From assembly GCA_965205865.1 (NCBI GenBank), contig CBDBHR010000029.1, positions 817,334 to 881,333 of the forward strand: a DNA stretch of 64,000 nucleotides, read 5' to 3'. The stretch's first letter is position 1. The number at the start of each line of letters is the position of its first letter. The notes beneath the pieces were generated by a model, which made no database searches, was not told where the DNA came from, and saw only the letters and a program-made list of their open reading frames with translations. This document shows, piece by piece, positions 25,274-56,605 of the stretch. A program made the translations under genes and the position numbers. The DNA is from a bacterium. Its GTDB lineage: Bacteria > SAR324 > NAC60-12.

Positions 25274-26230
25274 ATGAAACAGAATTTTTCGAAATTCCTC
25301 CCTCTTTTGATTTTGGGATTGATCTTTTTCTGGATTCCCACTCTTGCCATTGCGGAAGACCGGCAAATCGCAGGGCAGCCTTGGTGGATCTGGCCCATCT
25401 TGCTCTTTGGGCTGACGTTTTTTATCGGAGTTGGTGGAGTAATGGCAGGAATTGGTGGGGGAGTCTTGTTCGTACCGTTTGTCAGCGGATTTTTCCCCTT
25501 TCACATTGATTTTGTGAGAGGAGCCGGATTGATGATTGCATTGGGCAGCTCCCTGGCTGCGGCTCCCAATTTGCTCAAAACAAACGTTGCCAGTCTCAAA
25601 CTAGCTCTGCCTGCGGCATTGATTGCCTCCGGTTTTTCCATCATCGGCGCTCTCAGCGGCCTGTGGTTATCGCAGATCAATCCGGCATATATACAGATCA
25701 GTCTGGGAATTTTGATTTTCCTCATTGTTTTGCTCATGCTTTTTTCCAGTAATACGCTCTATCCGGAGGTCAAATCGGGAAATATTCTCACTGAAGCCCT
25801 GGGACTGAATGGTGTTTTTTATGAACCAACCCTGAATCGTCAAGTATCATGGAGCGTGCATCGAACAGCCAAGGGGTTAATGGCTTTCAGCCTGAGTGGC
25901 TTTCTGTCAGGTATGTTTGGATTAGGTGCAGGTTGGGCCAATGTTCCGATATTCAACCTGATCATGGGGGCTCCCTTAAAAATTTCAGTAGCCACCAGCA
26001 GCTTTGCCCTTTCCATCACCGACACCACGGCAATTTGGATTTACTTCAACCAAGGAGCGATTCTCCCCATTATCGTTATTCCCTCTCTGGCGGGTGTCAT
26101 GATTGGTGGCAAAATCGGAGGACATTTGCTGCCCAAAGTCAATCCCACTCTGACACGAAAATTTGTGATTGGCGTCTTAGCGCTGGCCGCCTTTTGCTCT
26201 TTGCTGAAAGGGATTTGGATTGTGATTTAA
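25274..26230 (+). CDS. Sulfite exporter TauE/SafE family
   Basis: Multi-TM; GIGGGVLFVP, GMFGLGAGWANVP, ATS motifs. Confidence 0.88.
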   Translation: MKQNFSKFLPLLILGLIFFWIPTLAIAEDRQIAGQPWWIWPILLFGLTFFIGVGGVMAGIGGGVLFVPFVSGFFPFHIDFVRGAGLMIALGSSLAAAPNLLKTNVASLKLALPAALIASGFSIIGALSGLWLSQINPAYIQISLGILIFLIVLLMLFSSNTLYPEVKSGNILTEALGLNGVFYEPTLNRQVSWSVHRTAKGLMAFSLSGFLSGMFGLGAGWANVPIFNLIMGAPLKISVATSSFALSITDTTAIWIYFNQGAILPIIVIPSLAGVMIGGKIGGHLLPKVNPTLTRKFVIGVLALAAFCSLLKGIWIVI

Positions 26231-26282
26231 AACTTTATATTTGAAGATATGGTCTGATAATGTTATTATAAATGGAAATCGT

Positions 26283-26696
26283 ATGAAATTGAAATATGAG
26301 AACCTGGAAATTCAACGTCGCTATGCGGAAGTGTTGAGACGGGTCTGTAATTTAGGTCTGGTCTTCCTTTTTCTCACCTTTGCGCTCTATGTACTCGGCA
26401 TTGTCAAACCCCTGATACCCTTGGAATCAATGCCTCAGTATTGGAACCTGCCTCTGCAAGAATTCTTGCTGCAAACCGGCGCCCCCAGAGGTTGGGAATG
26501 GATCGAGCATATCGGAAAGGCCGATTATCTCACCTTCATCGGACTGATCATTCTTGCAGGCGTGACTGGAGTTTGTTACCTCTTATTACTGTTCTTTTTT
26601 GTTAAAACAAGGAAGCTATTGTATATTGTTTTGGTTAGTACGGAGTTTTTATTGATTGCTTTTGCTGCCTCCAACCTTTTCGAATTGGGACATTGA
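26283..26696 (+). CDS. DUF1634-like membrane protein (TauE partner)
   Basis: 3 TM helices, GWEW motif, directly after TauE. Confidence 0.6.
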   Translation: MKLKYENLEIQRRYAEVLRRVCNLGLVFLFLTFALYVLGIVKPLIPLESMPQYWNLPLQEFLLQTGAPRGWEWIEHIGKADYLTFIGLIILAGVTGVCYLLLLFFFVKTRKLLYIVLVSTEFLLIAFAASNLFELGH

Positions 26697-26717
26697 TCAG
26701 CAAAATCCGGAGCCGTC

Positions 26718-27890
26718 ATGAGTGATGTAACCAGCATGAAAACCGCATTCAGAGAAGGGTATACGACTTTATTTGGTCGGCAATGGCCCTATTGGGTGGC
26801 AGGTATTTTGCTTGGAGGGATCAATGTATTCATGTTTGCTTACGCACGTCCCTGGAGTTCGGCGGATGGCATCAGAAATTGGGGAGATTGGTTTTATAAG
26901 ACAATCGGAGCATCTGATCAAATCATCATCGATCCCCATCTTTACTCCACCTCCGTGCTCAACTTTGGTTTGATTGTCGGAAGCATGGCTGCTGCTTTGT
27001 TTGCCAGGCAGTTTGCTGTGCGGATCGCTCCTTTTCGTGAGCTTCTCAAAGGGTTAGTCGGAGGAACTTTGATGGGAATTGGCTCCAGCCTTGCCTTTGG
27101 TTGCAACATCGGGGGATTTTTCAGCGCCACCAGCGCCTTGTCTCTATCAGGACCCACCATGATGCTGGGATTGCTCATGGGGGCGGTTATCGGACTAAAA
27201 TTGCTCATTTGGGAAGTTGAATTCCTACCTGCTTCTACTGCCTCTCCTTCACGGCCTGCCTCTACAAAGCAGAGGCAGAGACAACCGGCAATAGCGGTCG
27301 TTCTTCTTCTTCTGGCCACGATCATAGTCTTCCTGTACGATGGCTTCGAGTATCAAGAGCGGGCAGGGTTGCTGTTTTTTGGTTTGCTGATCGGCATTGT
27401 TATGCAACGTTCCCAATTTTGTTTTGTACGCGCTTTTCGCGAGCCTTTTATGACAGGACAGGGTGATGCTACCAAAGCAGTCGCCTTAGCTATCATCATA
27501 AGCGTCAGTGGTTTTAGTATTTTAAAATGGACAGATCTACGAGAATGGGATACAATGGTATCTTCCGGATTCTGGATTGGTAGTCTGATCGGAGGAATCG
27601 TTTTCGGAATCGGCATGTCCTTTGCGGGAGGGTGCGGTTCAAGCTGCATTTGGAGAGCAGGGGAAGGCCATGTGAAGTTGTGGCTGGCTCTGTTGACTTT
27701 TTCGTTGGTCGGCTCTTATTTCAGAGGATGGCTTGACGAGAGCGGCTGGCTGATGAAATTAGGAACCCAGGTATTTCTGCCTGACGTCATGGGTTGGAAA
27801 CTGGCATATCTTACCATCATCGCCATCATGCTGCTTTGGTACTTGGTAGCAAGTTGGAATGAAATCAAGGGGAAACTGATCATTTCTTGA
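26718..27890 (+). CDS. YeeE/YedE sulfur-compound (thiosulfate) transporter
   Basis: GCNIG, SQFCF, GGCGS motifs; multi-TM. Confidence 0.9.
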   Translation: MSDVTSMKTAFREGYTTLFGRQWPYWVAGILLGGINVFMFAYARPWSSADGIRNWGDWFYKTIGASDQIIIDPHLYSTSVLNFGLIVGSMAAALFARQFAVRIAPFRELLKGLVGGTLMGIGSSLAFGCNIGGFFSATSALSLSGPTMMLGLLMGAVIGLKLLIWEVEFLPASTASPSRPASTKQRQRQPAIAVVLLLLATIIVFLYDGFEYQERAGLLFFGLLIGIVMQRSQFCFVRAFREPFMTGQGDATKAVALAIIISVSGFSILKWTDLREWDTMVSSGFWIGSLIGGIVFGIGMSFAGGCGSSCIWRAGEGHVKLWLALLTFSLVGSYFRGWLDESGWLMKLGTQVFLPDVMGWKLAYLTIIAIMLLWYLVASWNEIKGKLIIS

Positions 27891-28021
27891 GTCATGTCTT
27901 TGCTGTCTCTCTTTTGATCAGTAGAATTATTAAATGAAGCAGTTCTGGAACAAGTTGATCTGAGTCAATCTCAAAAAGGGTGAATGTCGCTCTTGTCTTT
28001 CATCACTGGGAAAGGGAAAAT

Positions 28022-29341
28022 ATGAAAAAAAAATTCAGTCTATATTCAATCTTTTTAATCGTGCTCTTATGCTTTGCCGCAAACAGCGCGATGGCCGGTA
28101 AAAAATTTGGCGCTCCTACCGAAGGAATGACAAGTGCCGAGTATCAGAATTTGGTTTTCCTCGATCCTCAAAATACGGTCCGCATGGACTGGGATGCGGT
28201 GCGTAACCTGTCGGGGTATTTTTTCATAGACAATCAGGGAGAACCCACGGTTTCCGTCGTGGATTACTTCCAAGAAAAAACGATCAAAAAAATCGATATG
28301 GGAGAGAATGGGAACCATCATATTTTTGTGATTCCAGGAGCTCGATACGTCTACTCTTCCCAGCGTTATGAAAAAGATGTAATCTGGGTCATTGATCTGT
28401 TGACACTGGAGGTGGCCAAAAAAATCCATTTGAGCCGAGGTGGCAAACAAGTGATTGCCCCTCTGCACATTGGCTTTGCTTACACCCAAGCGCTGGCTGT
28501 TACGGGAAATATTCTCGATAAAGAACATGGATATTTGACTTTCATAAACACTGCCACCCACGAAACAGATAGCATTGTGGAATTGACGTGCCATGGCGCT
28601 CGTGATGCCATGTTCACTCTGGACGATTCCAAAGTTTTTACGAGTTGTCAACAAGAGCCGAAAGGAATGGCAGTTGTCGACGTTCAGAAAAGAAAACAGA
28701 TCAAAATAGTACCTCTCAAGGGCAGTAGAACCGGAGCCATGACACCTGATGGTCAATATTATATCGTCGGAGCCTCCGGAGCATTTCATATTTTTGATAC
28801 CGGTACCACTGAGTTGGTCAGATCTATCGAAGTGCCGGGCGGGGCTGGAAATGTGACCTGTCTCAAAGATAGTTCCAAATGCTATGGCGGTTTGAGAAAA
28901 GCAAAGGCTGTGGCAGTGTTGGATATGAAGAAGCTGGAGTTGATCAAAACAATCGAGACCGGTCCTGATGCCAACAGGCTTTATTTAAACCCCGCCAATC
29001 CTCGTTATGGAATTTTTGCCAATGAAGGTGGTAAGTCCGATTTCGTCACTGTCATTGACACGGTGGCCGATGTTGCGATGAAAAACATCTACACAGGTCT
29101 GGGACCGCACAACGTAGCGTTCAATCCTGCAGGAACCCATGCGATTGTTTCCACCAAAAAAGAGCCGGTGGCCACCCTGATAGATACGTCATCAGCCAAT
29201 CCTATGGATTGGGAGACTCTCACCACTGATATCGATTCAGGTATCCAAAACAATGGGGTCCGCTGGGTTCCCCATCCGGATGAGTTGAAACAATTGTTGG
29301 GAATGGTGGTGACGAAGGAACTTATCCTGGCGAGTAAATAA
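28022..29341 (+). CDS. Secreted YVTN/YncE-type beta-propeller protein
   Basis: Signal peptide; repeated V.ID..T..V.K.I blades, GPHNVAFNP. Confidence 0.8.
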   Translation: MKKKFSLYSIFLIVLLCFAANSAMAGKKFGAPTEGMTSAEYQNLVFLDPQNTVRMDWDAVRNLSGYFFIDNQGEPTVSVVDYFQEKTIKKIDMGENGNHHIFVIPGARYVYSSQRYEKDVIWVIDLLTLEVAKKIHLSRGGKQVIAPLHIGFAYTQALAVTGNILDKEHGYLTFINTATHETDSIVELTCHGARDAMFTLDDSKVFTSCQQEPKGMAVVDVQKRKQIKIVPLKGSRTGAMTPDGQYYIVGASGAFHIFDTGTTELVRSIEVPGGAGNVTCLKDSSKCYGGLRKAKAVAVLDMKKLELIKTIETGPDANRLYLNPANPRYGIFANEGGKSDFVTVIDTVADVAMKNIYTGLGPHNVAFNPAGTHAIVSTKKEPVATLIDTSSANPMDWETLTTDIDSGIQNNGVRWVPHPDELKQLLGMVVTKELILASK

Positions 29342-29435
29342 AAGTTTGTCTCCTTGCCCCCTCTTCTCCCGGAAACAGGGCGGGGAGGGGTTTTTCACAA
29401 GTTCCTATTCAATCATGCAGTACGGAGGAAGAACG

Positions 29436-29915
29436 ATGAAATCAGAAAATGTCATCACAAGAAGAAAATTCTTGCAGTACGCGGCCATTGGAGGAATGGC
29501 AGTCCCGGTATTTTCCAACTTGGTAATGCCCAATGCGGTACAAGGGGCTGTGACTCGTGAAATTTTCCGTTTCCCTCGAGATCTGAAGAATCTGACTGAT
29601 GCGCAGCGCATGCATCTTCCCAAGGTCACTATGCCTCCCGTCGTTGAAGATGGCAGTCAGGCGCCGATTGTGGTGGAAATGGATCATCCGATGGACCCGG
29701 ACCACTATATCAGGAGTATCCAAATAGTCAGTTTTAATGATCCTGTCGTGAATAAGGGGCAGTTTTACTTCACTCCCGCCAATGGTGAAGTTTACCTGGG
29801 CACCCAAATTCGCTTGGATGGTGGTGAGAGTACCGTATGGGTCATTGCCGAGTGTAACCAGGACGGTCTGTTTGCAATCAGTAGATCCGTCAAGGTGGCT
29901 GCCGGGGGATGCTAG
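29436..29915 (+). CDS. soxY: Tat-exported SoxY-like sulfur carrier with SOR-like His motifs
   Basis: TRRKFL Tat motif; P.VVEDG..PIVV; C-terminal VKVAAGGC. Confidence 0.75.
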   Translation: MKSENVITRRKFLQYAAIGGMAVPVFSNLVMPNAVQGAVTREIFRFPRDLKNLTDAQRMHLPKVTMPPVVEDGSQAPIVVEMDHPMDPDHYIRSIQIVSFNDPVVNKGQFYFTPANGEVYLGTQIRLDGGESTVWVIAECNQDGLFAISRSVKVAAGGC

Positions 29916-29917
29916 TG

Positions 29918-31552
29918 ATGTGGAGAAGAATTGCCTCGATACTGGTCAAGATAACCAACCTTTTGATCCTGTTCCTTTTCACATTCACGGGAAACTCTCC
30001 GCAAGCCTCCGAGATTGAGGGTTCCCACCCGATCGATCAGAAAAAAACGTGGGAGGAAATTCGGATTATCTCGACCAATGATATCCACTATTACTTACAC
30101 CCACTCTACTATCGATATATCGATGAAGTTCGACCTTGGGGAGCTCAATCCAGGGACGGGAATTATATTGCAAAAGCAAGACTCGAGGGGAAAATTGGGG
30201 GGATGGCCCATGTGGCCACGGTGATCGAGAGGCTTCGCGGCGAAAAACCTGGAAAATCACTGGTTGTGGATGCCGGAGATACCTGGCATGGCTCTGCATT
30301 TTCGCTCGTGGACCGGGGTGAATCGATGGTCAGGATCTTGAATACTATCGGCTATGACGTGATGGCGCTCGGCAATTGGGATTTTTACTATGAGGAAGAG
30401 CAGTTTCTGAATTTAGTGGAACAAGCCCGATTCCCGGTACTGGCTTACAATCTCGTTGACAAAGAATGGGAAGAGCCGGTCCTGGAGCAATTTACAATCA
30501 AGCAGGTAGGAAAACTGAAAGTCGCGATCGTGGGGATGACCTATCCCTGGACTGCCCTTACATCTGCAATTACAGGTGCTGCTCGATCGTACAAATTCGG
30601 AATCAGGGAAAATGAAGCTCAACTCTTGATCCGGCAAATCAGGGAGGAAGAAGATCCGGATCTCGTGATATTTGTCTCTCATGGCGGCTATGGTCTGGAT
30701 CAAAAGTTTGCGAAACGAGTGGATGGTATTGATGTTATAGTTAGCAGTCATACGCATGATGAAATTTTTCAACCCCTTGTCTGGAACGATACGATAATTT
30801 ATCAAGCAGGCGCTCATGGAAAATATGTGGCCAAACTGGATCTCTGGGTCAAAGACAAGAAAGTGGTCGACTTCGATTATCAGTTGATCAAGATCAATAA
30901 AAAACGCATCCCAGCCCATCCTGAAGTCGCTCAAATCATTGAGGAAGCCTACCGTCCCCACAAAAAAAAACTGGAAGAGATCGTTGGAATATCCAAAAGC
31001 ATGCTTTACCGGCGAGATTTTTGGCAAAGTACGCTGGGAAATCTGATCACCACCGCATTGCAGGATTCTGCCAAAACCGATATCGCTTTTTTCCCTGCCT
31101 GGAGGTTCGGCGCCACGCTGCTTCCGGGTAAAATCACTGTCGGAGACGTTTACAATATGGTACCCACCCATGGACGGATCATCACTTATTCCATGCAGGG
31201 AGAGCAAATCAAAATGCTGCTGGAAAATATTCTGGGAAGTTTCACGGATGCGGATCCTTATGCTCGCGTGGGAGGGGATATGATCCGCTTTTCAGGTCTC
31301 AAAATCCGCTACGATTTGAACAGGAGAGTGAGAGATCGCATTGTTTCGCTGCGGATCGGAGACCAACCTGTTGATTTAAATAAGTCCTACAGCATTGCAT
31401 CCGTGCATACCCGTTTTCAAAACAATCCCCTCTTCGGGGCAACGAATATCAAAGATACCGGCAAAATATTTGTTGAGGAACTTATCCAATACATCCGAGA
31501 ACACTCACCCCTCGTCTCTGAACTCGATGATAGGATAATGCCAGTTCAATGA
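29918..31552 (+). CDS. soxB: SoxB-like thiosulfohydrolase (5'-nucleotidase family)
   Basis: TNDIH, DAGDTWHGS, GNWDF, SHTHD, LYRR, WRFGAT, GGDMIR; between soxY and soxZ. Confidence 0.75.
   Translation: MWRRIASILVKITNLLILFLFTFTGNSPQASEIEGSHPIDQKKTWEEIRIISTNDIHYYLHPLYYRYIDEVRPWGAQSRDGNYIAKARLEGKIGGMAHVATVIERLRGEKPGKSLVVDAGDTWHGSAFSLVDRGESMVRILNTIGYDVMALGNWDFYYEEEQFLNLVEQARFPVLAYNLVDKEWEEPVLEQFTIKQVGKLKVAIVGMTYPWTALTSAITGAARSYKFGIRENEAQLLIRQIREEEDPDLVIFVSHGGYGLDQKFAKRVDGIDVIVSSHTHDEIFQPLVWNDTIIYQAGAHGKYVAKLDLWVKDKKVVDFDYQLIKINKKRIPAHPEVAQIIEEAYRPHKKKLEEIVGISKSMLYRRDFWQSTLGNLITTALQDSAKTDIAFFPAWRFGATLLPGKITVGDVYNMVPTHGRIITYSMQGEQIKMLLENILGSFTDADPYARVGGDMIRFSGLKIRYDLNRRVRDRIVSLRIGDQPVDLNKSYSIASVHTRFQNNPLFGATNIKDTGKIFVEELIQYIREHSPLVSELDDRIMPVQ
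30017..30052 (+). repeat. Single 36-bp dispersed repeat inside soxB
   Basis: gagggttcccacccgatcgatcagaaaaaaacgtgg. Confidence 0.85.
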
Positions 31553-31600
31553 GCTAAAACAGTTTGCATTAAAATATGGACCGTATCGAAAAAGGAAACC

Positions 31601-31951
31601 ATGGCTGAAAAAATCGCCCCCCCCCGCCTCCGTTTGCCGAGACGGATCAAGAAAGATCAAGTATTCAAAGTGAAGGTTAAATTCGACCACCCTTCGTTCA
31701 CCGGGTTAGGACGGGTGGATGAGAAAACCCTGCCTCGTTTCAATCGGGCGGTACCAACTTCGTTCATCCGCACAATGCTGGTTTACTATGGAGATGAGTT
31801 GGTCAACCGTTTCGCCATGAGTTCCGCGATTGCTGACTTTCCCCTCTTTACCTTCAAATTAAAAGCAACCAAGGAAGCACCCGTCAAGGTGGTTTTTATC
31901 AACAATCATGGAGAACGTTGGGAAGTCTCCAAAGATGTAAAGCCCCGTTAA
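31601..31951 (+). CDS. soxZ: SoxZ-like protein
   Basis: VKVKFDHPSFTG, FI..M.V.Y, SSAIADFPLFTFK, NNHGE. Confidence 0.7.
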   Translation: MAEKIAPPRLRLPRRIKKDQVFKVKVKFDHPSFTGLGRVDEKTLPRFNRAVPTSFIRTMLVYYGDELVNRFAMSSAIADFPLFTFKLKATKEAPVKVVFINNHGERWEVSKDVKPR

Positions 31952-31997
31952 ATGAATATTTTATTTTTCAAAATAAAACGAGAATTGAGGGTCATTC

Positions 31998-32708
31998 ATG
32001 AATAATAGATTTACCACCTTGCTCCTCTTTTCCTTCATGGCAGGTTTGATTTTGAATACAATTGCTCAGCATTCAGTGGCCAATGCCGAGAAAGCTCAAT
32101 TTGAAATCGAGGGATTGATTTCTCCTGTCAGTCCAAAAGCTCTGACCAAAGGGCTGCTGGACAAGCTGAGGGTGAAGGTGACTGACCTGAATTTGAAAAA
32201 CACGCCGAGTGGTTGGCCAGTATTGACCGTCGAATTTGATGCCGCTACTGTCAGCAAAGAAGCAATTGAATCCGCCATTGCCTCAATCGAAGATCCGGCA
32301 GGTCACCATTTTCAAGTGCGCAAAGGACCTCCACGGGTGGAAGCCCCTTTGCTCAAGGAAGAAATGGACGCCATAGCTGTCATCCCCGCATCTGTTCCTC
32401 AGATCCCATCTCTGGAAAATCCCATTCCACGCACCAGTGAATCGGAGGCACTCGGCCAAACGCTGTATCGAAGAAACTGTGCCAAATGCCACGGCTTGGA
32501 TGGAGGGGGACAAGGCCCCAGTGCGCATGGATTCCTCAGCAATCCCCGAAAACTTTATGTCTGGTTCAATACCGACTCCTCGACGGATGGTTATTTGTTT
32601 TGGTATATAACCCAAGGGCGCAACGACATGCCTCCCTGGGGACTGGTGCTCTCGGAAGAGGAGCGCTGGCATCTGGTCAACTACGTCAAATCCATGAAAC
32701 AACCTTAG
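31998..32708 (+). CDS. Secreted monoheme cytochrome c with N-terminal HMA-like domain
   Basis: CAKCH, MPPWG..LSEEERWHLVNYV; N-terminal FEIEGL..V.FD...VS.E.I..AI. Confidence 0.8.
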   Translation: MNNRFTTLLLFSFMAGLILNTIAQHSVANAEKAQFEIEGLISPVSPKALTKGLLDKLRVKVTDLNLKNTPSGWPVLTVEFDAATVSKEAIESAIASIEDPAGHHFQVRKGPPRVEAPLLKEEMDAIAVIPASVPQIPSLENPIPRTSESEALGQTLYRRNCAKCHGLDGGGQGPSAHGFLSNPRKLYVWFNTDSSTDGYLFWYITQGRNDMPPWGLVLSEEERWHLVNYVKSMKQP

Positions 32709-32757
32709 CTTCCAAGGAGGGTCTGGCTCAACAAACTAAACCTCAACGAGTTTTTAG

Positions 32758-33180
32758 ATGGAGATCGCTCGGGATATCGTGACCCAATCTTTTCACGATA
32801 TGAAATTTGAAGAACTCCTTGAAGATTTGGTCAAAGAAATCGAGTTGCGTAATTATCGCATCACTCGTGTTTATAACATTGACAATATCAAAGAGCGTAA
32901 AGAATTACTGCAAGATTTCCAGGTGGAATTCGAGCATTACAAGATCGTGGAATTTTGCAATTTGACCAAATGCGCAACTTTGATTTCTTCCCATCTTTTA
33001 GTAGGCGTTTTCATGCCGCTGAAATTCGTTGTCTATCAGGAAGTCACGCAAAGCCAAGTGGAGGTTGCGTTTTTAAAACCAACTGCCTTTGCCAAGATTT
33101 TTGACTCTGCCTCTCTCACTGAGATAGCCGCAGTGTTGGAGAAAGATATGCGCTATGTACTGGAAGAAATCGATTTTTAA
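32758..33180 (+). CDS. DUF302 family protein
   Basis: YKIVEFCN, GVFMPLKFVVYQ, FLKPT. Confidence 0.75.
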   Translation: MEIARDIVTQSFHDMKFEELLEDLVKEIELRNYRITRVYNIDNIKERKELLQDFQVEFEHYKIVEFCNLTKCATLISSHLLVGVFMPLKFVVYQEVTQSQVEVAFLKPTAFAKIFDSASLTEIAAVLEKDMRYVLEEIDF

Positions 33181-33742
33181 AATACATCTGCTGACGGGGC
33201 TTGTTTTCCTGATGATGGGGGCTTTTTGTTATACCATGGCTCAGGATTCAAAACCAAAACCCGGGGGCGATTTCACCCTGCAATCGCTACGCGGCCCCGT
33301 GTCGCTCCATGATTTTCAAGGCAAAGTGGTTTTGCTGTTTTTTGGATACACGAGTTGTCCTTCAATGTGTCCGCTTTCCCTATCGACCATGGAAAGTACT
33401 TTCTCCAAAATGCCACCGGAGACCTTGCAGAAAATACAAGCCCTTTTTATCAGCTTGGATCCGGAAGAGGACACTTTGACGAAGTTGAAACAATACACAG
33501 AATTTTTTCATCCAAATATTCTTGGTGTGACCGACCAGCCAGAAAGTATCGCTCGGGTTGCGCAACAATATGGGGTGGTTTATGAGAGAGAATTATTGAG
33601 CCATTCAGCCCTGGGATATATCATCAATCACACAGCTGATATCTTCCTGGTCGATCCTCAAGGAAAATTACAAGAATCGGTGGCCCATGATTCTCCCCCT
33701 CAACTGCTTCGCGAGTCTATCCATCGACTTCTTTCCCGATAA
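33155..33742 (+). CDS. SCO1/SenC copper chaperone
   Basis: FFGYTSCPSMCP, ISLDPE, NHT motifs. Confidence 0.9.
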   Translation: MYWKKSIFKIHLLTGLVFLMMGAFCYTMAQDSKPKPGGDFTLQSLRGPVSLHDFQGKVVLLFFGYTSCPSMCPLSLSTMESTFSKMPPETLQKIQALFISLDPEEDTLTKLKQYTEFFHPNILGVTDQPESIARVAQQYGVVYERELLSHSALGYIINHTADIFLVDPQGKLQESVAHDSPPQLLRESIHRLLSR

Positions 33743-33786
33743 AGAGCCCGGACGGACTTTTAACCTTTCATTTTCAATTTCAGACT

Positions 33787-35364
33787 ATGGCTCTGTTGCG
33801 AACCTGCTTATTTTTTCCGGCAATCTGGATTGCCTTGATCATCTCTGCCCACGCTTTCGAACATGAGCATTCTCCCGTTCAATTTTTGGAATACCACCCC
33901 ACCATCATTGACAATCAAAAATTCCGGAAAAAACCTTTTTATCTGCTCTTCTCAGCGCAATGGTGTCATTGGTGTAAGATCTTTGCCAACAAGACATTGA
34001 TGGATCCCAACGTACACGCCTTTCTCAATGAGAATTTTGTCAATATCTTCATTGATGCCGATATCCACCCGACCGTTTTTAAAAAATTCAAGGCAACAGG
34101 CTGGCCCTACACAGTTTTTTTGAATCCCGATACTAGTGTTCACTATCAGTACGCGGGTACCGTTTATCCCAAAGATTTCGTTAAAGTACTGTATGAAGTC
34201 AAGCAAAATGTAGACGAAGGACGGACGATCCCCGGGTTTGAAACGATTGCTTATGAATATGATCCTCCCAAAGAATTGGAAAAGGAAAGAATGCAGTCGT
34301 TCCAGGAATTGTTTCAGCAAACGATTTTGGAGAATTTTGACCTGAGCGAAGGAGGGATCGGCAAAAAAGAAAAAGCCATTTTTCCCGGAACCCTTCTCTA
34401 TCTGTTGGACACGGCCAATGCGGAAGACCGGGCTGAGGTCATCGAGTCGATCCACCTGACTTTGAAGAAAGCAATCCTGCGCATCTATGATCCCATTGAA
34501 GGAGGATTTTTCCGCTATGCGGAGAAACGGGAGTGGCAAATCCCACATTATGAAAAAATGGCGGATTTGAATGCGGGAAATATTTTGCTTCTTTACAAAA
34601 TGGCGCGCGAGACTAAAGATGCCGAATTGAAGAAAATCGCAGACCAAACGCTGAAATATCTGGTCACGACTCTCTTTGATTCAAAGACCGGTATCTTTTT
34701 GAGCTTCCAAGAAGCCGACACGCATTACTATTTCTTTGATGCCAAGCAACGAAAAACCATGCAAGCTCCCTTCGTGATTCAAAAGGTCTTTGTCAACCGT
34801 GTGGCTCCTACGCTCGACTATCTGATCGATGTCCTTGAATATTCTGATGGATTTGCTCTTGAACATAAAATAAAACAATCTCTTGATTTGCTGGCATCGA
34901 TGATCCGGCAAAATGATCGACTCTCCCACTATTACTCGGTGACCCGGAACAAATGGATGGGTGAAAGCCGGCTGGCGAATTATGCGTACTTGGCATATTT
35001 ATTCCAGAAAGCCGCCACTCGTTTTGAAAATCCCCATTTTGAGGAAACGGCATTGATAGTTTTGCAATCAACCAAGAACCAGTTTTTTGACCGAGACCTG
35101 CGTATTTTTGCTGATAGTCTTTCCCTGCATTGGGGAGATATTGAATATCACATGGAAATGAACGGTTTCCTGGCGCAAATGCTCTTGCATACCAAAAAAG
35201 TGAGCAACAGCAGAGCGGCTGAAGGGCTGCTGACCTATTTTCTCGCCATGGATGAATATCTCGAAGAACAAGCCTGGGATGCTCGTGAATGGGAATTTCT
35301 GGAACGCTATGTTCCTTATCTGAAAGCGCTCGGACTGCGCAATGAAAAAGCAAAAAACCGATGA
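33787..35364 (+). CDS. Secreted thioredoxin-domain protein (YyaL/DUF255-like)
   Basis: WCHWC, GWPYTVFLNP, GGFFRY...W.IPHYEKM. Confidence 0.85.
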   Translation: MALLRTCLFFPAIWIALIISAHAFEHEHSPVQFLEYHPTIIDNQKFRKKPFYLLFSAQWCHWCKIFANKTLMDPNVHAFLNENFVNIFIDADIHPTVFKKFKATGWPYTVFLNPDTSVHYQYAGTVYPKDFVKVLYEVKQNVDEGRTIPGFETIAYEYDPPKELEKERMQSFQELFQQTILENFDLSEGGIGKKEKAIFPGTLLYLLDTANAEDRAEVIESIHLTLKKAILRIYDPIEGGFFRYAEKREWQIPHYEKMADLNAGNILLLYKMARETKDAELKKIADQTLKYLVTTLFDSKTGIFLSFQEADTHYYFFDAKQRKTMQAPFVIQKVFVNRVAPTLDYLIDVLEYSDGFALEHKIKQSLDLLASMIRQNDRLSHYYSVTRNKWMGESRLANYAYLAYLFQKAATRFENPHFEETALIVLQSTKNQFFDRDLRIFADSLSLHWGDIEYHMEMNGFLAQMLLHTKKVSNSRAAEGLLTYFLAMDEYLEEQAWDAREWEFLERYVPYLKALGLRNEKAKNR

Positions 35365-35657: not shown

Positions 35658-36512
35658 ATGAAATATGTAGCACCAAAATCAGTCGAGGAGGCACTTGCTC
35701 TACTTGGTACGGAACCAGACTATTGTGTGTTCGCCGGAGCAACTGATATTGTCCCACAGATGCGAGCGGGACGACCCGAACCGAAACTGATGGTTAATCT
35801 GAAGAGCATCCCGGACTTGATTGGTATGGAATGCGAAAATGGCGCATGGACCGTAGGGGCCGCTACGCCAGTGGCCTCTATCCATGGAAGCGCGGACTTT
35901 CAGGCGGATTTCCCGGGGATTGCTGAATCCAGTGGACTGATCGGTTCCGATCAGATCCAAAACAGGGCTAGTTGGGGAGGTAATGTTTGCAATGCGTCTC
36001 CGGGAGCAGACACCGTACCGGCTTTAATCGTCAATGACGCGCAAGCCGTGATTGCAACCAATGGAGGCACTCGCGCGATACCCGTGTCCGAGGTGGCCAC
36101 TGGCCCGGGGCAGACGTCGCTGGCATCAGGTGAGTTTGTCGTCGAATTTAAAATTGAACGCCCGTCTCCGCGCACCTCTGATGCCTATGAGCGGTTTATT
36201 CCCCGCACGGAGATGGATATCGCAGTCGTTGATGCGGCAGCGAGGATTACGCTGGATGAGAATGATCATTGCAAAGAGGCAACAATCGCTGTTGGTGCGG
36301 CAGCCCCCACTATCGTTCGAGTACCAGCGGCTGAGGATGCGCTGCGGGGTCAGCCTATCAACGATCAGACATTGGCCGCCGTCGGTGCCGCCGCCAGTGC
36401 CGCATGTAGCCCAATCAATGATAAACGAGGTACCATTGAATATCGTACTCAGGTCGCTGGGGTTCTAGCGAAACGGGTTGTCAAATTAGCAGCGGAACGT
36501 GCACGCAAATGA
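35658..36512 (+). CDS. Xanthine dehydrogenase family FAD-binding subunit
   Basis: AGATD, QIQNRASWGGNVCNASPGAD, PINDKRGT. Confidence 0.92.
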   Translation: MKYVAPKSVEEALALLGTEPDYCVFAGATDIVPQMRAGRPEPKLMVNLKSIPDLIGMECENGAWTVGAATPVASIHGSADFQADFPGIAESSGLIGSDQIQNRASWGGNVCNASPGADTVPALIVNDAQAVIATNGGTRAIPVSEVATGPGQTSLASGEFVVEFKIERPSPRTSDAYERFIPRTEMDIAVVDAAARITLDENDHCKEATIAVGAAAPTIVRVPAAEDALRGQPINDQTLAAVGAAASAACSPINDKRGTIEYRTQVAGVLAKRVVKLAAERARK

Positions 36513-36522
36513 GGAGAATAGT

Positions 36523-36999
36523 ATGAATCGAACACATGTAGTATGTAATATTAATGGCGACGAGGTCGAGTTTCTTTGTGATGACGATGAATCATTGCTC
36601 GATGCGTTGCGCGACGAAGTTGGACTAACAGGGGCAAAGGAAGGCTGCGGTACCGGAGACTGTGGCGCTTGTTCAATAATTTTCGATGGCCTCTTGATTT
36701 GTTCATGCCTGGCATTTGCTCCCGAAGCAAATGGCGCGCACATTGAAACAGTCGAAGGAATGGCCGACGGGGAGACGCTCCATCCCTTGCAAACAGCTTT
36801 TCTCGAAGGAGCCGCTCTGCAATGTGGGGTTTGTACTCCGGGATTTCTCGTTGCTGCCAAAGCATTGCTCGAGCGCAATTCCGATCCCACGGAAACCGAA
36901 ATTCGTTATGCCCTGGCTGGCAATCTTTGCCGTTGTACCGGATATGACAAAATCGTGCGCTCGGTGATTGATGCCGCCGCACAAATGAATAACGCATAA
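36523..36999 (+). CDS. Xanthine dehydrogenase family 2Fe-2S subunit
   Basis: GCGTGDCGAC, QCGVCTPG, NLCRCTGY. Confidence 0.94.
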   Translation: MNRTHVVCNINGDEVEFLCDDDESLLDALRDEVGLTGAKEGCGTGDCGACSIIFDGLLICSCLAFAPEANGAHIETVEGMADGETLHPLQTAFLEGAALQCGVCTPGFLVAAKALLERNSDPTETEIRYALAGNLCRCTGYDKIVRSVIDAAAQMNNA

Positions 37000-37016
37000 A
37001 GGAAAGGGGAAATATT

Positions 37017-39269
37017 ATGACAATTGCTAATGAAACTTCTGAAACCAAAACCCCCTATAAATGGATCGGAACCCGACCCGTACGACACGATGGGTTGGAA
37101 AAAGTGACCGGTCGTGCCCGCTTTGCCGCGGATATGATCATGCCCAGGATGATCCATGGTCACGTCTTACGCTCCCCTCATGCCCATGCGCGTATTCTTT
37201 CCATCGATACGACGGAAGCGGAAGCCATGGCCGGAGTGAGAGCCATCGTCACAGGCAAGGATTTTCCGGATCCGAATCCCTCGGACAACGTTTCACGCAA
37301 TTTGATGGCACGCGACAAGGTGCGCTATGAAGGGCAGGTAGTGGCCGCCGTGGCTGCCAATACTCGTCGTCAGGCCAAAGCGGCTGCCGAGAAGATCGCG
37401 ATTGAATACGAAGTACTGGGTCATGTAATAACCGTCGATGAAGCCATGGCCGATGACGCGCCTTTGCTCCACGAAAACTTGATAACCAAGGGTGTCGACC
37501 CGGTTCCCACCAAACCCTCTAACATTGCCAACCGGTCTCACTACGAGCGTGGTGACCTCGAAGCTGGTTTTGCAGAGGCAGACGTGGTGTATGAGCACGA
37601 GTTTACCACCAAGGTTGTTCATCAAGGCTATATTGAACCACACGCCGCCGTTGCCGATACCGGCACAGACGGTCGCTCGACCATTTGGTGCTCCTCTCAG
37701 GGACATTTTCGGGTCCGTTCCCAGACCGCGAAAATGTTAGGTTGGGAAACTTCCCAAATCAAAGTGATCCCGGCCGAGATTGGAGGAGGATTTGGTGGCA
37801 AAACCACCATATATCTCGAACCACTGGCAGTGAGGCTCTCTGAGCTTGCGAAGCGGCCGGTAAAAATCGTCATGAGTCGTGATGAAGTCTTTCGAGCAAC
37901 CGGACCCACCCCCGGTACGCGGGTTAAGGTCAAACTTGGAGCTCGTAAGGACGGCACGCTTGTGGCGGGTAAAGCCTGGCTCGCATATGAGAGTGGGGCC
38001 TTCCCTGGAATTTGGGGAATGCTGGGCGCCTGGTGTGTCTTTGCGCCTTACAAAATCCCCAACTTTAAAATCGAAGCCTTTGAGGTAGTGGTCAATAAAC
38101 CCGTCAATGTCGCCTATCGAGCTCCGTCAGCGCCTATGGCTGCCTTTGCTACGGAGACCGTTCTTGACCAGATCGCTTGCGAGATAAAAATGGATCCAAT
38201 CGATTTGCGATTGCTCAATGCGGCGGAGGAAGGCCATCAGAGGCCGGAAGGGCCGATATACGGACCGATAGGGCTCAAGGCAACCTTGGAAGCCATTCGC
38301 GACCATCCCCATTACAAAGCGCCGTTGGCTCCCAATCAAGGACGTGGGGTCGCGACCGGGTTTTGGTTCAACATCGCGGAATCTTCAAGCGCGACGGTTA
38401 ATCTTACCGAAAATGGCACTGCAGTCGTGGTCACCGGTAGTCCGGATATTGGCGGCAGTCGCGCTTCAATGGCACTCTTTGCCGCCGAAGAGCTCGGCAT
38501 CGACGTCAAACTGATTCAACCCGTCGTGGGCGATACCGAATCCGTTGGCTTCACTGATGTTACCGAGGGAAGTCGCGCCACTTTCGCCACAGGATGGGCG
38601 GTAGTGGAAGCCTGTCGTAAACTCGTTGTTCAACTGCGGGAACGAGCGGCTATCATGTGGGACTGCAATGTCGATGAGGTTGAATGGATCGATGGCAGTG
38701 CCTACCATACTGGCAAAAATGAGCCACCGCTCTCACTGGCAGAGATCACTGGCGCAGCGAAACAGACCGGAGGTCCGCTCACGGCAACGGGTTCTCTCGA
38801 GGCCAAAGGCCAAGGTCCGGCCTTTTCCTCTCATATCTGTGACCTTGAAGTCGATCCTGAAACAGGAAGGGTCACCATTGTGAGATACACCACGGCTCAG
38901 GATGCCGGCACGGCCATTCATCCCAGTTATGTGGAAGGACAAATGCAAGGAGGAGTGGCGCAGGCCATTGGCTGGGCGCTCAATGAGGAATATATCCATG
39001 ACGACAAAGGAGTTATGGAAAACCCGAGTTTTCTGGATTATCGTATTCCTGTTGCTTCGGATCTTCCCATGATCGAAACGATCATTGTCGAAGTACCCAA
39101 TCCCAATCATCCTTATGGGGTGCGAGGAGTTGGTGAGGTGGGCATTGTGCCTCCTATTCCTGCGATTGCAAACGCCATCTCTGATGCGGTTGGAGTACGT
39201 TTGCGCGATCTTCCCATGTCTCCGGTCGCGCTTCTCGATGCATTGAACAAACACAACGGCGCTGGCTGA
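37017..39269 (+). CDS. Xanthine dehydrogenase family molybdopterin-binding subunit
   Basis: RSPHAHA, IGGGFGGK, AYRAPSAP, EGQMQGG, RGVGE. Confidence 0.93.
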   Translation: MTIANETSETKTPYKWIGTRPVRHDGLEKVTGRARFAADMIMPRMIHGHVLRSPHAHARILSIDTTEAEAMAGVRAIVTGKDFPDPNPSDNVSRNLMARDKVRYEGQVVAAVAANTRRQAKAAAEKIAIEYEVLGHVITVDEAMADDAPLLHENLITKGVDPVPTKPSNIANRSHYERGDLEAGFAEADVVYEHEFTTKVVHQGYIEPHAAVADTGTDGRSTIWCSSQGHFRVRSQTAKMLGWETSQIKVIPAEIGGGFGGKTTIYLEPLAVRLSELAKRPVKIVMSRDEVFRATGPTPGTRVKVKLGARKDGTLVAGKAWLAYESGAFPGIWGMLGAWCVFAPYKIPNFKIEAFEVVVNKPVNVAYRAPSAPMAAFATETVLDQIACEIKMDPIDLRLLNAAEEGHQRPEGPIYGPIGLKATLEAIRDHPHYKAPLAPNQGRGVATGFWFNIAESSSATVNLTENGTAVVVTGSPDIGGSRASMALFAAEELGIDVKLIQPVVGDTESVGFTDVTEGSRATFATGWAVVEACRKLVVQLRERAAIMWDCNVDEVEWIDGSAYHTGKNEPPLSLAEITGAAKQTGGPLTATGSLEAKGQGPAFSSHICDLEVDPETGRVTIVRYTTAQDAGTAIHPSYVEGQMQGGVAQAIGWALNEEYIHDDKGVMENPSFLDYRIPVASDLPMIETIIVEVPNPNHPYGVRGVGEVGIVPPIPAIANAISDAVGVRLRDLPMSPVALLDALNKHNGAG

Positions 39270-39532: not shown

Positions 39533-39961
39533 TTATCCTGAAAGGTTGCCCCAACTGGCAACCTTCAACATTCTGATCGCAATGACAGGAAGATCATTCA
39601 ACACCATGGCTTCATATTGCGGATATCGCTGTTTCAGTAATTCCTGAGCATGGTCATGTTCAACACCATTCTCGAGGATTTCTGCGCGACCCTGCAACAT
39701 TACCCATCCCAATTGTGACCAGTCGGTATCGTCATAGTGGTCAGCAACAAGAGCGACTTGTGGATTTTCCCGGATATTGCGAATTCTCTTCAGTATACGG
39801 TTTGTATTTTGCTTTGGTTTTTTATCTACGGTGATGTAAGCCGTGTTTCCATGCAGCGTAAAACAAACGGGTACAACATGTGGCTGGCATTGGAAATTTG
39901 CGGTGGCCAAGCGGGCCACTCGCCGGGTTTCTAAAAATTGGGATTCCTTTTCTGTGAGCAT
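39533..39961 (-). CDS. PPOX-class putative F420-dependent oxidoreductase (Rv0121-like)
   Basis: RVARLAT, PHVVPVCF, VDKKPK, LKRIRNIRENPQVAL.ADHY.DDWSQLGWV. Confidence 0.85.
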   Translation of the reverse strand: MLTEKESQFLETRRVARLATANFQCQPHVVPVCFTLHGNTAYITVDKKPKQNTNRILKRIRNIRENPQVALVADHYDDTDWSQLGWVMLQGRAEILENGVEHDHAQELLKQRYPQYEAMVLNDLPVIAIRMLKVASWGNLSG

Positions 39962-40135
39962 GGAATGATGCCAATGATTGTAGAAAAGACTTGGGACGGT
40001 TTTTAAAAGAATTATTCGACCATAAACGAAATTCAAGAAAAATTGAAGAAATGATGGTGGATTGTTTCAATTGCTTGTGAGAAAAAATGTTTTTCAGGCT
40101 GCTTACGAATCATCCAAACCTCGAAAGGAGAAGAG

Positions 40136-40628: not shown

Positions 40629-40868
40629 TCAGTTCTTTTGAATGAAAAAGACATGCGCGTTTCCTTCCACCTCCGTTTTGAGAATTGAATTCCCGGTACG
40701 AGTACTCCAGGTTCTCATGTCACTGATGAAGCCCGGATCCGTCGAAGCCATTTTCAGCACTTGTCCGGGGGATAACTTGGACAACGCCTTTTTTGTTTGC
40801 AGCGCGGGCATCGGACAAGTGAGATTTCGGCAATCCAAATACTGATCAAAGTTCATATCTTGCCGCAT
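40629..40868 (-). CDS. TusA/SirA family sulfurtransferase
   Basis: LDCRNLTCPMP, STDPG. Confidence 0.92.
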   Translation of the reverse strand: MRQDMNFDQYLDCRNLTCPMPALQTKKALSKLSPGQVLKMASTDPGFISDMRTWSTRTGNSILKTEVEGNAHVFFIQKN

Positions 40869-40917
40869 TGACTTTTCTCCTTGCCAAATGGCATTTTACG
40901 TTGCTGATTGTTTTTTT

Positions 40918-41637
40918 TCAAAGATCGGTATGTAGCCCGCATTCTGTTTTTTCACACTGATTCCACCGGTCCTCTCTTCCATTGATTCCCACACCCTTTG
41001 TGCAGGGAACACATCCCAGGCTTTGATCTTTTCCTGAAATATGGAGAGGATGGACAGGGATTCGCTTTTTTTTCATATAAGTAAAAACTTCGTCGGAAGT
41101 CCAATCCAGGAAGGGATGGAGTTTATATATTTCCTTTTTTGTCAAGATGGCACGCGCAAAGCTGCTTCTCTGATGGGTCTGACTTTTGCGCACCGCGGAA
41201 ATCCACGCCCGAACGCCATACTGGTTGATATAGTCTTCCAGTGGTTGAACTTTATTCATGGCACAGCACAAATCGGGATTGGACAAGTACAATCTCCCAT
41301 GTTTTTTTAAAAAATCCTCTTTTGTGAGTTTTGGCAATGCTTCCACGAAATCCAGTTTCCTATAATTTGCTTTCAAGGTCTCGAAGTAATCCAGGGTTTC
41401 CTGAAACAAGAAACCGGTGTTGACAAAAACGACGCGGATGGGCAATTCGAGTTCGGACAAAAAATGAACCAGCACTCCTGAGCTGATACCGCAGGAGGTC
41501 GTAGCGATTAATTTGTCACCGAAAATATCATAGGCTTCCCGAATGAGCCGCGCCGTATCCAGGTGATTGAGTTTGCGCAATACAGCCTGTATTTGCGTAA
41601 AGTGCTCGCCAATCGGCATTTGATTCGACATGTTCAT
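40918..41637 (-). CDS. cysH: APS/PAPS reductase (Fe-S APS-type motifs)
   Basis: NTGFLFQET, CCAMNKV.PL, SLGCVPCT, ECGLH. Confidence 0.9.
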   Translation of the reverse strand: MNMSNQMPIGEHFTQIQAVLRKLNHLDTARLIREAYDIFGDKLIATTSCGISSGVLVHFLSELELPIRVVFVNTGFLFQETLDYFETLKANYRKLDFVEALPKLTKEDFLKKHGRLYLSNPDLCCAMNKVQPLEDYINQYGVRAWISAVRKSQTHQRSSFARAILTKKEIYKLHPFLDWTSDEVFTYMKKKRIPVHPLHISGKDQSLGCVPCTKGVGINGREDRWNQCEKTECGLHTDL

Positions 41638-41653
41638 GACTTCCATTTTGGCT

Positions 41654-43807: not shown

Positions 43808-43866
43808 GTTTACCTTTTGAAAAATTCCTTTCTCCCAGACCTCTCCAGTTGTGGGAGCTTTTATAA

Positions 43867-44322
43867 TTAAATATAATAAATGAAACCCTGGTTGTTCCGA
43901 GAACTCACTTTGGCTTCCCGTCTCAGAATATCCTGCATACTGATAGTGTCTAAAACCCTGGCTATTGCTTCCTGAACTTCGGCCCATACTCCAAAAAAAT
44001 GAAGGCGACCTTCTCCCACGGATTGCAAATGAGTCAGGGGATCCGAATGTTCCGGAGAGAACCAGCGTTTATCAACCAAGCGAATGATATCCCCCAAAAA
44101 AATTTCATCCGGTGGCTTTGCCAGAGCATAACCCCCACTTGGCCCTTTTCTGCTTTCCACATATCCTGCTTTTTTCAACTGTAACATGATTTGTTCGAGA
44201 TACTTGTTCGGGATATCTTGAGCTTTGGAAAGATCCGAGACCCGTACCAGTTTGTTGTTGTAATAATGCGATAGCTCCAAAACTGCGCGCAGCGCATAAT
44301 TACATCGGGTTGAGCGCTTCAT
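43867..44322 (-). CDS. Rrf2 family regulator (CymR-like, no Cys triad)
   Basis: YALRAVLEL, YLEQIM..LK..G.VESRKG..GGY.LAK. Confidence 0.92.
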   Translation of the reverse strand: MKRSTRCNYALRAVLELSHYYNNKLVRVSDLSKAQDIPNKYLEQIMLQLKKAGYVESRKGPSGGYALAKPPDEIFLGDIIRLVDKRWFSPEHSDPLTHLQSVGEGRLHFFGVWAEVQEAIARVLDTISMQDILRREAKVSSRNNQGFIYYI

Positions 44323-55469: not shown

Positions 55470-55516
55470 AGGTCTCCAAGATGAAAGTGGTCAATTTGAA
55501 TCTTACGCTTGCAATA

Positions 55517-56601: not shown

Positions 56602-56605
56602 CGCA

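Follow-up and report, generated by a model that had tools for sequence, protein, structure and literature searches.

A conserved nine-gene cassette in SAR324 and other bacteria encodes a candidate variant periplasmic Sox module whose SoxY carries superoxide-reductase-type ligand residues

How could a sulfur-oxidation (Sox) gene cluster operate when it encodes a SoxY-SoxZ carrier and a SoxB-type hydrolase together with neither SoxAX nor SoxCD? The question is raised by 11 genes lying between positions 25274 and 35364 of a 64,000-nucleotide stretch of SAR324 DNA (GenBank assembly GCA_965205865.1, contig CBDBHR010000029.1, positions 817,334 to 881,333), the whole of which is hereafter called the window. 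Published work has met similar gene sets. A SAR324 metapangenome study reported that, below 200 m, only SoxYZ and SoxB of the Sox proteins occur, together with rDsr, Apr, Qmo and Sat, and this was read as a branched pathway (PMC8364033); an earlier SAR324 paper described an 'incomplete sox complex', with SoxB and SoxZ on a contig that also carries a membrane redox cluster (PMC4782131). For the window, the original prediction proposed a non-canonical Sox-like unit with an alternative loading step or substrate, coupled to sulfur import and sulfite export. Our analysis supports the non-canonical unit and bears out this interpretation in part. Nine of the 11 genes form a transferable cassette that is real and tightly conserved in deep-sea and sponge-associated bacteria, and its most unusual feature, unnoticed in the original prediction, is the superoxide-reductase-type ligand set of its SoxY. 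We tentatively propose, at a probability that we place a little short of even, that the region encodes a self-contained variant periplasmic Sox module that brings its own parts for loading and electron transfer and would pass sulfane sulfur to the cytoplasm. The cassette proteins are designated SoxY*, SoxB* and SoxZ*, as distinct from canonical SoxY, SoxB and SoxZ.

All 11 open reading frames (ORFs) were confirmed on the + strand, separated by short gaps or small overlaps, and soxB* was seen in the ORF order to split soxY* from soxZ*, as had been described. Pfam and NCBIfam models named 10 of the 11; the label 'DUF1634-like' for the second gene was dropped, as no Pfam or NCBIfam match was obtained even at E up to 10. 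Promoter and terminator scans of the DNA returned sites at the level of shuffled sequence (16 versus 15.5, and 13 versus 12.0, respectively), and these scans were therefore uninformative on operon structure.

The conservation of the cluster was assessed by using SoxB* as the query. In a word-indexed search, 747 of 8000 candidate proteins matched at E ≤ 1e-20. The best 120 of these 747 matches were all at least 58% identical, and the named sources among them were SAR324, Arenicellales, Desulfatiglandales and Pseudomonadota, with the proteins annotated as 'SoxB' or '5'-nucleotidase'. When one genome per species was scanned with SoxB*, 55 loci were obtained. At 39 of these, SoxB* was 57-83% identical over the best segment; at the other 16, there were only relatives of 27-35% identity, and the other cassette genes were absent. 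The 39 loci (handles of the form L001 below) came from SAR324, Arenicellales, other Gammaproteobacteria and Binatia, representing at least three phylum-level groups, and the gene order was identical in all of them: YeeE, beta-propeller, SoxY*, SoxB*, SoxZ*, cytochrome c, DUF302, SCO1 and thioredoxin (Trx)-like protein. When only loci with a contig reaching the respective position were counted, YeeE was found in 33 of 33, the propeller and SoxY* each in 35 of 35, and cytochrome c in 36 of 36; SoxZ* was present in 39 of 39 (38 as an ORF and one by tblastn at a contig end). DUF302 was found in 30 loci and was truly absent in four otherwise complete Arenicellales loci (L013, L017, L018 and L019); SCO1 was found in 31 and was absent in two SAR324 loci (L011 and L022), so neither protein can be essential everywhere. 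The Trx-like gene was found in 30 loci, most of the others ending at a contig edge. Because 39 independent loci of several phyla share this order, the arrangement is not due to chance, and because the neighbourhoods outside the nine genes vary by lineage while the nine stay constant, these genes act as one unit. The two genes at the start of the cluster behaved differently: a TauE homologue upstream of the cassette was seen in only one of the 39 loci, L001, which was also the only one with a copy (70% identical) of the small hydrophobic gene. Since both are limited to the window and L001, the locus most closely related to it, they lie outside the conserved cassette, and sulfite export, which had been put forward as a feature of the cluster, is a lineage add-on at most.

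The first cassette gene and several of the flanking genes point to sulfur transfer. The YeeE protein matched PF04143 in two stretches, and the NCBIfam YedE and TsuA models matched below their cut-offs; C129, C235 and C306 were at least 95% conserved. By its domains and conserved Cys residues, it is a member of the YeeE/YedE sulfur transporter family. TusA genes were found beside the cassette in five of the 39 loci as well as in the window, and DsrE2 in five loci (NF047629, 221 bits; cut-off 210). DsrE/DsrH/DsrE sets adjoined the cassette in four to six Arenicellales loci, and DsrM/K/O/P-like genes, identified as such by their Pfam domains (Nitrate_red_gam, Fer4, Fer4_11 and NrfD), lay upstream in three. 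In Hyphomicrobium denitrificans, the YeeE-like protein SoxT1A is reported to import sulfur for cytoplasmic oxidation (PMC11582611). The predicted coupling to sulfur import thus fits the invariant YeeE, the frequent TusA/DsrE2/DsrEFH flanks and the published SoxT role. The TusA protein of the window was 81% identical to the L001 TusA-cluster protein by tblastn and scored 35.9 bits on the NCBIfam TusA model, below the cut-off. Its gene adjoins one for a 777-amino-acid NirA/sulfite-reductase-like sirohaem protein with two NIR_SIR halves (the pair spanning 40632-43987, - strand); this protein did not reach the cut-off of any NCBIfam model (highest score 243 bits versus 523, for the NirA family), and it could be a sulfur-pathway partner or serve plain assimilation.

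Judged by its domains, SoxB* is a member of the calcineurin-like metallophosphoesterase/5'-nucleotidase superfamily (PF00149, 34.9 bits; PF02872, the 5'-nucleotidase C-terminal domain, 97.2 bits), and the metal-ligand motifs DxH, GDxx, GN, SH and GHTH were kept in its alignment columns. On the NCBIfam equivalog model TIGR04486 it scored 406.2 bits, below the cut-off of 550, and the family representative P0121 scored 401 bits. Among PDB entries, Thermus SoxB (2wdc) matched at 207 bits, compared with 94 bits for the best nucleotidase. In an exhaustive search of 1.84 billion representatives, there was a single full-length 50%-identity cluster for the SoxB* family (P0121, 754 bits), and the next full-length relative followed at 377 bits and 40% identity. 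To place the family, 90 of 150 listed relatives (the first 90 of the 100 with 440-660 amino acids, fragments and multidomain proteins being excluded) were scanned with NCBIfam, and 13 of the 90 reached the TIGR04486 cut-off, with 598-855 bits. A tree of 71 rows was then computed with IQ-TREE (short search, LG+G4) from the window sequence, nine family members (eight from the SoxB* search, and P0121) and 61 of the 90 scanned relatives, 28 having been left out arbitrarily. In this tree, the cassette SoxB* family formed one clade of 10 rows with a Shimodaira-Hasegawa-like approximate likelihood ratio test (SH-aLRT) value of 100, separate from the canonical SoxB clade of 14 rows (SH-aLRT 99). Both belonged, with four other sequences and as an unresolved polytomy, to a 28-row clade (SH-aLRT 98), and the nucleotidase-like rows fell outside it. 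SoxB* thus showed neither of the two placements, in the standard SoxB clade or among ordinary nucleotidases, that would have spoken against the original prediction.

The window motif G155-N-W-D-F159 had been described as intermediate between nucleotidases and SoxB, and the alignment columns bear this out: the motif is GNH[ED]F in nucleotidases, GHWEF in canonical SoxB, GNW[ED][FY] in the cassette family and mostly GNW[ED]x in a neighbouring SoxB-like clade. Over the 39 loci, GNWEF occurred 24 times, GNWEY 11 times and GNWDF twice, the remaining two being truncated ORFs without the motif. The Trp is common to SoxB, where it replaces the catalytic His of nucleotidases, and the Asn is common to nucleotidases. 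An ordinary nucleotidase is ruled out by the tree position and by the lost catalytic His. On phylogeny and motif, SoxB* is a sister-level relative of canonical SoxB; the phosphoesterase catalytic His has been lost in both, and SoxB* most likely remains an active dinuclear hydrolase.

SoxY* probably starts at Met31 (position 29436), after which comes a predicted twin-arginine translocation (TAT) signal, RRKF. The protein matched two Pfam domains, SoxY (PF13501, 65.1 bits; threshold 28.4) and Desulfoferrodox (PF01880, 31.2 bits; threshold 22.2), and both were found in 119 of the 120 SoxY* homologues listed; some sources label these homologues 'desulfoferrodoxin (superoxide reductase-like protein)'. 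On the NCBIfam models, it scored 59.7 bits for TIGR04488 ('SoxY_true_GGCGG'; cut-off 125) and 16.6 bits for TIGR00332 (cut-off 61.9). All 35 orthologues end in ...VAAGGC, so that the carrier Cys is the last residue, and that of Thermus SoxY (4uwq_B) occupies the same alignment column. In an alignment of 29 SoxY* sequences, H90, H114 and C170 were invariant, and H120 and H173 were conserved in at least 90%. When the SoxY* profile was compared with the Ignicoccus superoxide reductase 4brj, H90 fell on HtP, H114 and H120 on HPneaaH, and C170 and H173 on CNlHGlW. The corresponding motifs HxP, HPxxxxH and CNxHGxW are what we take to be the four-His-one-Cys iron ligands of centre II. Thermus SoxY, in the same profile search, had none of these ligand residues. 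All five positions were kept in most orthologues, and four in the window copy. Loci L027 and L003 hold both paralogues; the canonical SoxY there is without all five ligand positions and, on TIGR04488, scored 168 bits with the ending GGCGG in L027 and 142 bits with the ending GGCN in L003. The AlphaFold2 model of SoxY* was weak overall, with a predicted local distance difference test (pLDDT) score of 63.5 that rose to about 80-88 over most of the domain, and Foldseek gave similar ranks to superoxide reductases and SoxY structures. Its partner SoxZ* scored 49.9 bits on Pfam PF08770 (cut-off 25) and 45.5 bits on TIGR04490 (cut-off 76), and it has no signal peptide, as in canonical SoxYZ. Taken together, these features mark SoxY*, at the level of residues and domains, as a hybrid of a SoxY-type carrier arm and superoxide-reductase-type ligand residues, and the site may bind iron. 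An unlikely extension is that SoxY* acts as a metallo-carrier, in which an Fe(His)4Cys centre of the superoxide reductase type would sit beside the swinging terminal Cys and, together with a copper propeller and cytochrome c, would carry out the oxidative loading otherwise done by SoxAX. If true, this would provide a SoxAX-independent route of sulfur oxidation in abundant dark-ocean bacteria (SAR324, Arenicellales and sponge symbionts), and SoxY* would represent an extant intermediate linking the folds of SoxY and superoxide reductase.

The same ligand set admits a reading in which the cassette conserves no energy and serves periplasmic redox defence or persulfide detoxification: the SoxY* centre would act on superoxide or reactive sulfur, with the cytochrome c supplying electrons and the Trx-like and SCO proteins repairing thiols. 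The conserved ligands and the 'desulfoferrodoxin' label agree with this, as do the two thiol-redox proteins of the cassette and the DsbD_N gene that follows it in SAR324. We regard it as very improbable, since it leaves unexplained the invariant SoxB-type hydrolase, the SoxZ partner, the terminal carrier Cys and the YeeE protein, as well as the recurring TusA/DsrE2/DsrEFH/DsrMKOP neighbours.

Of the other cassette proteins, the cytochrome c, presumed to be the electron acceptor, has one CxxCH motif, in the window copy as in each of the 36 orthologues, and its N-terminal domain of about 130 amino acids gave no Pfam match. The Cys pair C67 and C72 of DUF302 was at least 95% conserved, as were, over 31 sequences, the CxxxC (C68 and C72) and H159 of the SCO1 protein. 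With this CxxxC, the distal His and a PF02630 match of 129.4 bits, the protein is, as far as domain and residues go, a SCO1/SenC chaperone. In the Trx-like protein, C60 and C63 (WCHWC) were conserved, and a weak LANC_like match was seen beside PF03190. In six SAR324 loci (L004, 15493-16412, and the same position in L005, L009, L015, L022 and L025), the Trx-like gene was followed by a BamE-domain gene and then by a DsbD_N-domain gene, an extension suggestive of a thiol-reduction relay that serves the Trx-like protein. In one gammaproteobacterial genome (L027, 13119-14528), an IS1182-family transposase gene (378 bits) was inserted within the cassette, between DUF302 and SCO1.

The beta-propeller, which probably starts at Met15 (position 28022) and bears a Sec-type signal, gave only weak Pfam and NCBIfam matches, the best being L-NosZ (61.6 bits versus a cut-off of 700). 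Its AlphaFold2 model had a pLDDT of 88.5 and a predicted template modelling (pTM) score of 0.84. Foldseek matched this model to generic propellers with template modelling (TM) scores of at most 0.62 and to NosZ with 0.50-0.55 (normalised by query length). Its neighbours were an archaeal YVTN propeller, NirF/NirN, cd1 nitrite reductase, NosZ, hydrazine synthase beta and, very weakly, thiocyanate dehydrogenase (TcDH; E 0.07-0.12 for its chains). PDB sequence and profile searches, Foldseek and the ESM Atlas returned only generic propellers of the YVTN/cd1/NosZ type, so no specific family can be assigned; the best non-generic profile matches were PDB 8q9x and 8yu5 ('TAT signal domain-containing protein'), on whose identity a literature look-up gave nothing relevant. 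Over 32 sequences, H113, H114, H163 and H377 and C204, C223, C294 and C301 were invariant. Neither NosZ nor TcDH was matched at family level, and the four invariant His fall short of a full set of His copper ligands. A periodicity argument for spatial clustering of these four His failed on the DSSP strand list and was abandoned. By these searches, the propeller is in no described family, and it may bind copper.

A copper propeller would also suit a substrate other than thiosulfate. With the same architecture, the propeller would take or oxidise the sulfur (sulfide or polysulfide, polythionates, thiocyanate, or a thiol such as methanethiol) and hand it to SoxY*. The likeness to copper propellers, weak but repeated (L-NosZ by score, NosZ by fold, TcDH at E of about 0.07-0.1), speaks for this, as do the SCO1 copper chaperone within the cassette and the coexistence with canonical SoxXYZA in some genomes, which suggests non-redundancy. 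A further precedent is Erythrobacter flavus 21-3, in which a SoxB-like '5'-nucleotidase' from outside the canonical SoxB clade was reported to process tetrathionate without SoxYZ, after TsdA (PMC7608252). We nevertheless consider it decidedly unlikely, as no family-level match of the propeller to TcDH, NosZ or the SBP56-type methanethiol oxidase was found and a SoxB-type sulfonate hydrolase argues for a sulfonate-bearing adduct.

The self-contained module that we favour would work as follows, the substrate, the metals, the order of the steps and the independence from SoxAX being what we infer. A sulfur substrate that carries or acquires a sulfonate group, most simply thiosulfate, would be oxidatively joined to the terminal Cys of the SoxY*-SoxZ* pair, and the electrons would leave through the monohaem cytochrome c of the cassette. 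Loading would be done by cassette parts in place of SoxAX, namely by the His-lined propeller (with copper probably from SCO1), by the superoxide-reductase-type metal site of SoxY*, or by both. SoxB* would then release the sulfonate as sulfate. With no SoxCD, the sulfane sulfur would pass from the carrier to the YeeE/SoxT-like protein and on to cytoplasmic carriers of the TusA/DsrE type and the reverse Dsr pathway of the host. The Trx-like, SCO1 and DUF302 proteins may mature or re-reduce the carrier, and the lineage-specific TauE could export sulfite that is produced.

Whether the cassette can dispense with SoxAX was addressed through the genes around it. The absence of SoxAX and SoxCD noted in the original prediction holds for the window: no soxA, soxX, soxC or soxD was found by Pfam among 39 further ORFs of the 64 kb (38 of the 44 non-cluster ORFs of at least 90 amino acids and one CBS-domain ORF, 12 short ORFs being excluded), and tblastn of the same 64 kb with canonical SoxX, SoxY, SoxZ, SoxA and SoxAX-binding protein (SAXB) from L027 found none of them. 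It does not hold for all related loci. No SoxA or SoxX occurred within the available flanks of 35 of the 39; in the other four (L012, L027, L029 and L031), canonical soxX-soxY-soxZ-soxA lies within 10 kb of the cassette, accompanied by the SAXB gene in three, and in L003 canonical soxYZ lies directly upstream. No canonical soxB was found within the stretches of these five loci. From the adjacency of soxXYZA, two carrier types coexist there and are probably not redundant.

These loci bring up a further reading, in which the cassette is an accessory to an ordinary truncated Sox system: SoxAX encoded elsewhere would load the carrier or carriers, SoxB* would be the SoxB of the genome, and the propeller, cytochrome c, SCO1 and Trx-like proteins would be auxiliary, serving electron transfer, carrier repair or the entry of another substrate. 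It draws on the four soxXYZA loci, on the place of SoxB* within the clade that holds canonical SoxB, and on the soxXAYZBCD set reported for a cultured strain of UBA868, an Arenicellales family (bioRxiv 10.64898/2026.04.01.715867). We take it to be somewhat unlikely: the cassette has its own SoxY*Z* pair, and where a canonical pair occurs in the same genome, the two differ exactly at the ligand positions and in the residues after the Cys; the 35 loci above show no soxAX in view; deep SAR324 populations are reported to lack SoxXA (PMC8364033); and the propeller and cytochrome c are strictly linked to SoxY*B*Z*, as would be expected of a complete functional unit.

Several findings nonetheless count against a self-contained module. 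Where soxXYZA adjoins the cassette with no canonical soxB in view, SoxB* might serve an ordinary SoxAX pathway; SoxY* of the window, like that of L033, has Asp in place of His at position 173; the fold matches of the propeller are generic and its copper-propeller similarity is weak; and SCO1 and DUF302 are missing from the two and four loci named above. Features of the window and of these loci are listed in the table.

Table. Positions of the cluster genes and related features (window coordinates unless a locus is given)
Feature	Position	Strand	Match or remark
TauE/SafE-family anion exporter, 318 amino acids	25274..26230	+	Pfam PF01925, 108 bits
Small hydrophobic protein, 151 amino acids	26241..26696	+	no family match
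YeeE/YedE (SoxT-like) sulfur transporter, first cassette gene	26718..27890	+	PF04143, 181 bits
Periplasmic beta-propeller (YVTN / cytochrome-d1 / NosZ-like fold), candidate metal enzyme	27980..29341	+	weak matches
SoxY* carrier	29346..29915	+	Pfam SoxY 65 bits, Desulfoferrodox 31 bits
SoxB* predicted dinuclear metallohydrolase, motif GNWDF	29909..31552	+	TIGR04486 406 bits
SoxZ*, partner of SoxY*	31601..31951	+	Pfam SoxZ 49.9 bits
Periplasmic class-I monohaem cytochrome c	31998..32708	+	PF13442 60 bits, residues 152-230
DUF302 protein, accessory	32758..33180	+	PF03625 38.9 bits
SCO1/SenC-type copper chaperone or thiol-disulfide protein, membrane-anchored	33155..33742	+	PF02630 129 bits
Secreted thioredoxin-like (DUF255, WCHWC) protein with alpha/alpha-barrel-like domain, last cassette gene	33787..35364	+	PF03190 64 bits
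TusA-family sulfur carrier, possible cytoplasmic acceptor	40632..40883	-	5.3 kb downstream of cassette
Canonical soxX-soxY-soxZ-soxA, L012	3480-5493	opposite to cassette	
Canonical soxX-soxY-soxZ-soxA, L027	17804-20278	opposite to cassette	
Canonical soxX-soxY-soxZ-soxA, L029	16168-18571	opposite to cassette	
Canonical soxX-soxY-soxZ-soxA, L031	15746-18516	opposite to cassette	

The rest of the window is ordinary chromosome, with an L11-L1-L10-L7/L12 ribosomal protein operon, NusG, SecE and 2-oxoacid:ferredoxin oxidoreductases. The nearest named relatives of its ribosomal protein L1 were SAR324 cluster bacteria (76%), and other records were 90-92% identical. Directly downstream of the cassette and on the same strand (35658-39269), three genes encode the FAD, 2Fe-2S and Mo subunits of a molybdenum hydroxylase (xanthine-dehydrogenase/CoxL-like, below all equivalog cut-offs); the cassettes of other lineages do not include them. 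They are followed by a PPOX-class F420-dependent oxidoreductase (39533-40036, - strand; TIGR03668, 157 bits, above the cut-off), a match that hints at F420 use in this lineage. Farther upstream, at 4789-5838, a tRNA 2-selenouridine synthase MnmH (328 bits, above the cut-off) was found, and the organism therefore probably uses selenium. At 51642-61405, a region of raised G+C (0.53-0.58) is a probable defence or mobile island; it encodes a 1275-amino-acid HTH-SNF2/helicase-NOV_C protein, a small aspartyl-protease-like ORF, an 818-amino-acid protein without a known family, a GmrSD_N (DUF262) protein and an AAA_15/AAA_21 ATPase with DUF3696.

Metagenomic surveys score genes of this kind as 'SoxY', 'SoxZ' and 'SoxB' and the pathway then as incomplete, as in the SAR324 study cited above (PMC8364033). 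If the cassette is self-sufficient, the sulfur-oxidation potential of SAR324, Arenicellales relatives and sponge symbionts is at present misread, and many dark-ocean 'partial Sox' calls would be explained. Close relatives of the SoxB* family in public data number in the hundreds. A carrier with a superoxide-reductase-type metal site would be a new, bench-testable proposition that links two protein families so far treated apart. No account of the cassette or of such a SoxY was found in the literature searched, with supplements and subscription journals outside the search, and a term search of a 2026 survey of Sox evolution found no mention of a SoxB-like clade, SAR324 or a propeller (PMC13500833).

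When compared with known systems, the cassette resembles each in part. Like NosZ with its CuZ domain and like thiocyanate dehydrogenase, it has a secreted, His-bearing propeller whose gene accompanies those of a copper chaperone and a cytochrome c, and there is weak similarity in sequence or fold; unlike them, its propeller is far below the family thresholds, has four invariant His only and has no cupredoxin domain. With superoxide reductase, or desulfoferrodoxin centre II (neelaredoxin; PDB 4brj and 2amu), SoxY* shares an Ig-like fold, five ligand positions in register and a PF01880 score above the cut-off. It differs in its predicted TAT secretion, its pairing with SoxZ*, its SoxY arm with a terminal Cys, its low TIGR00332 score and the Asp of the window copy. 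The E. flavus route likewise employs a SoxB-related hydrolase annotated as 5'-nucleotidase outside the SoxAX-dependent scheme; that route starts at TsdA and needs no SoxYZ, whereas the cassette always has SoxY*Z*, with no tsdA in view. The Hyphomicrobium SoxT1A system is alike in its YeeE/YedE membrane protein encoded with sox genes, in having no SoxCD and in its nearby relay proteins of the TusA/DsrE type. That system relies on SoxXA, SoxYZ and SoxB of the canonical kind and supplies sHdr, whereas the cassette has Dsr-type neighbours and a variant periplasmic set. Finally, the cassette shares several features with the canonical (Kelly-Friedrich) Sox system. In both, the carrier is of the SoxY/SoxZ type, its Cys sits on a C-terminal GGC arm and SoxY bears a TAT signal; both also have a dinuclear hydrolase of the SoxB type and a c-type cytochrome, and these parts are placed in the periplasm. 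The cassette departs from that system in containing no soxA, soxX, soxC or soxD and in placing soxB between soxY and soxZ. SoxB*, SoxY* and SoxZ* are all below the NCBIfam equivalog cut-offs, and SoxY* ends at the Cys, in contrast to GGCGG, and carries the superoxide-reductase-type ligand residues. To the canonical set, the cassette adds an invariant propeller and YeeE.

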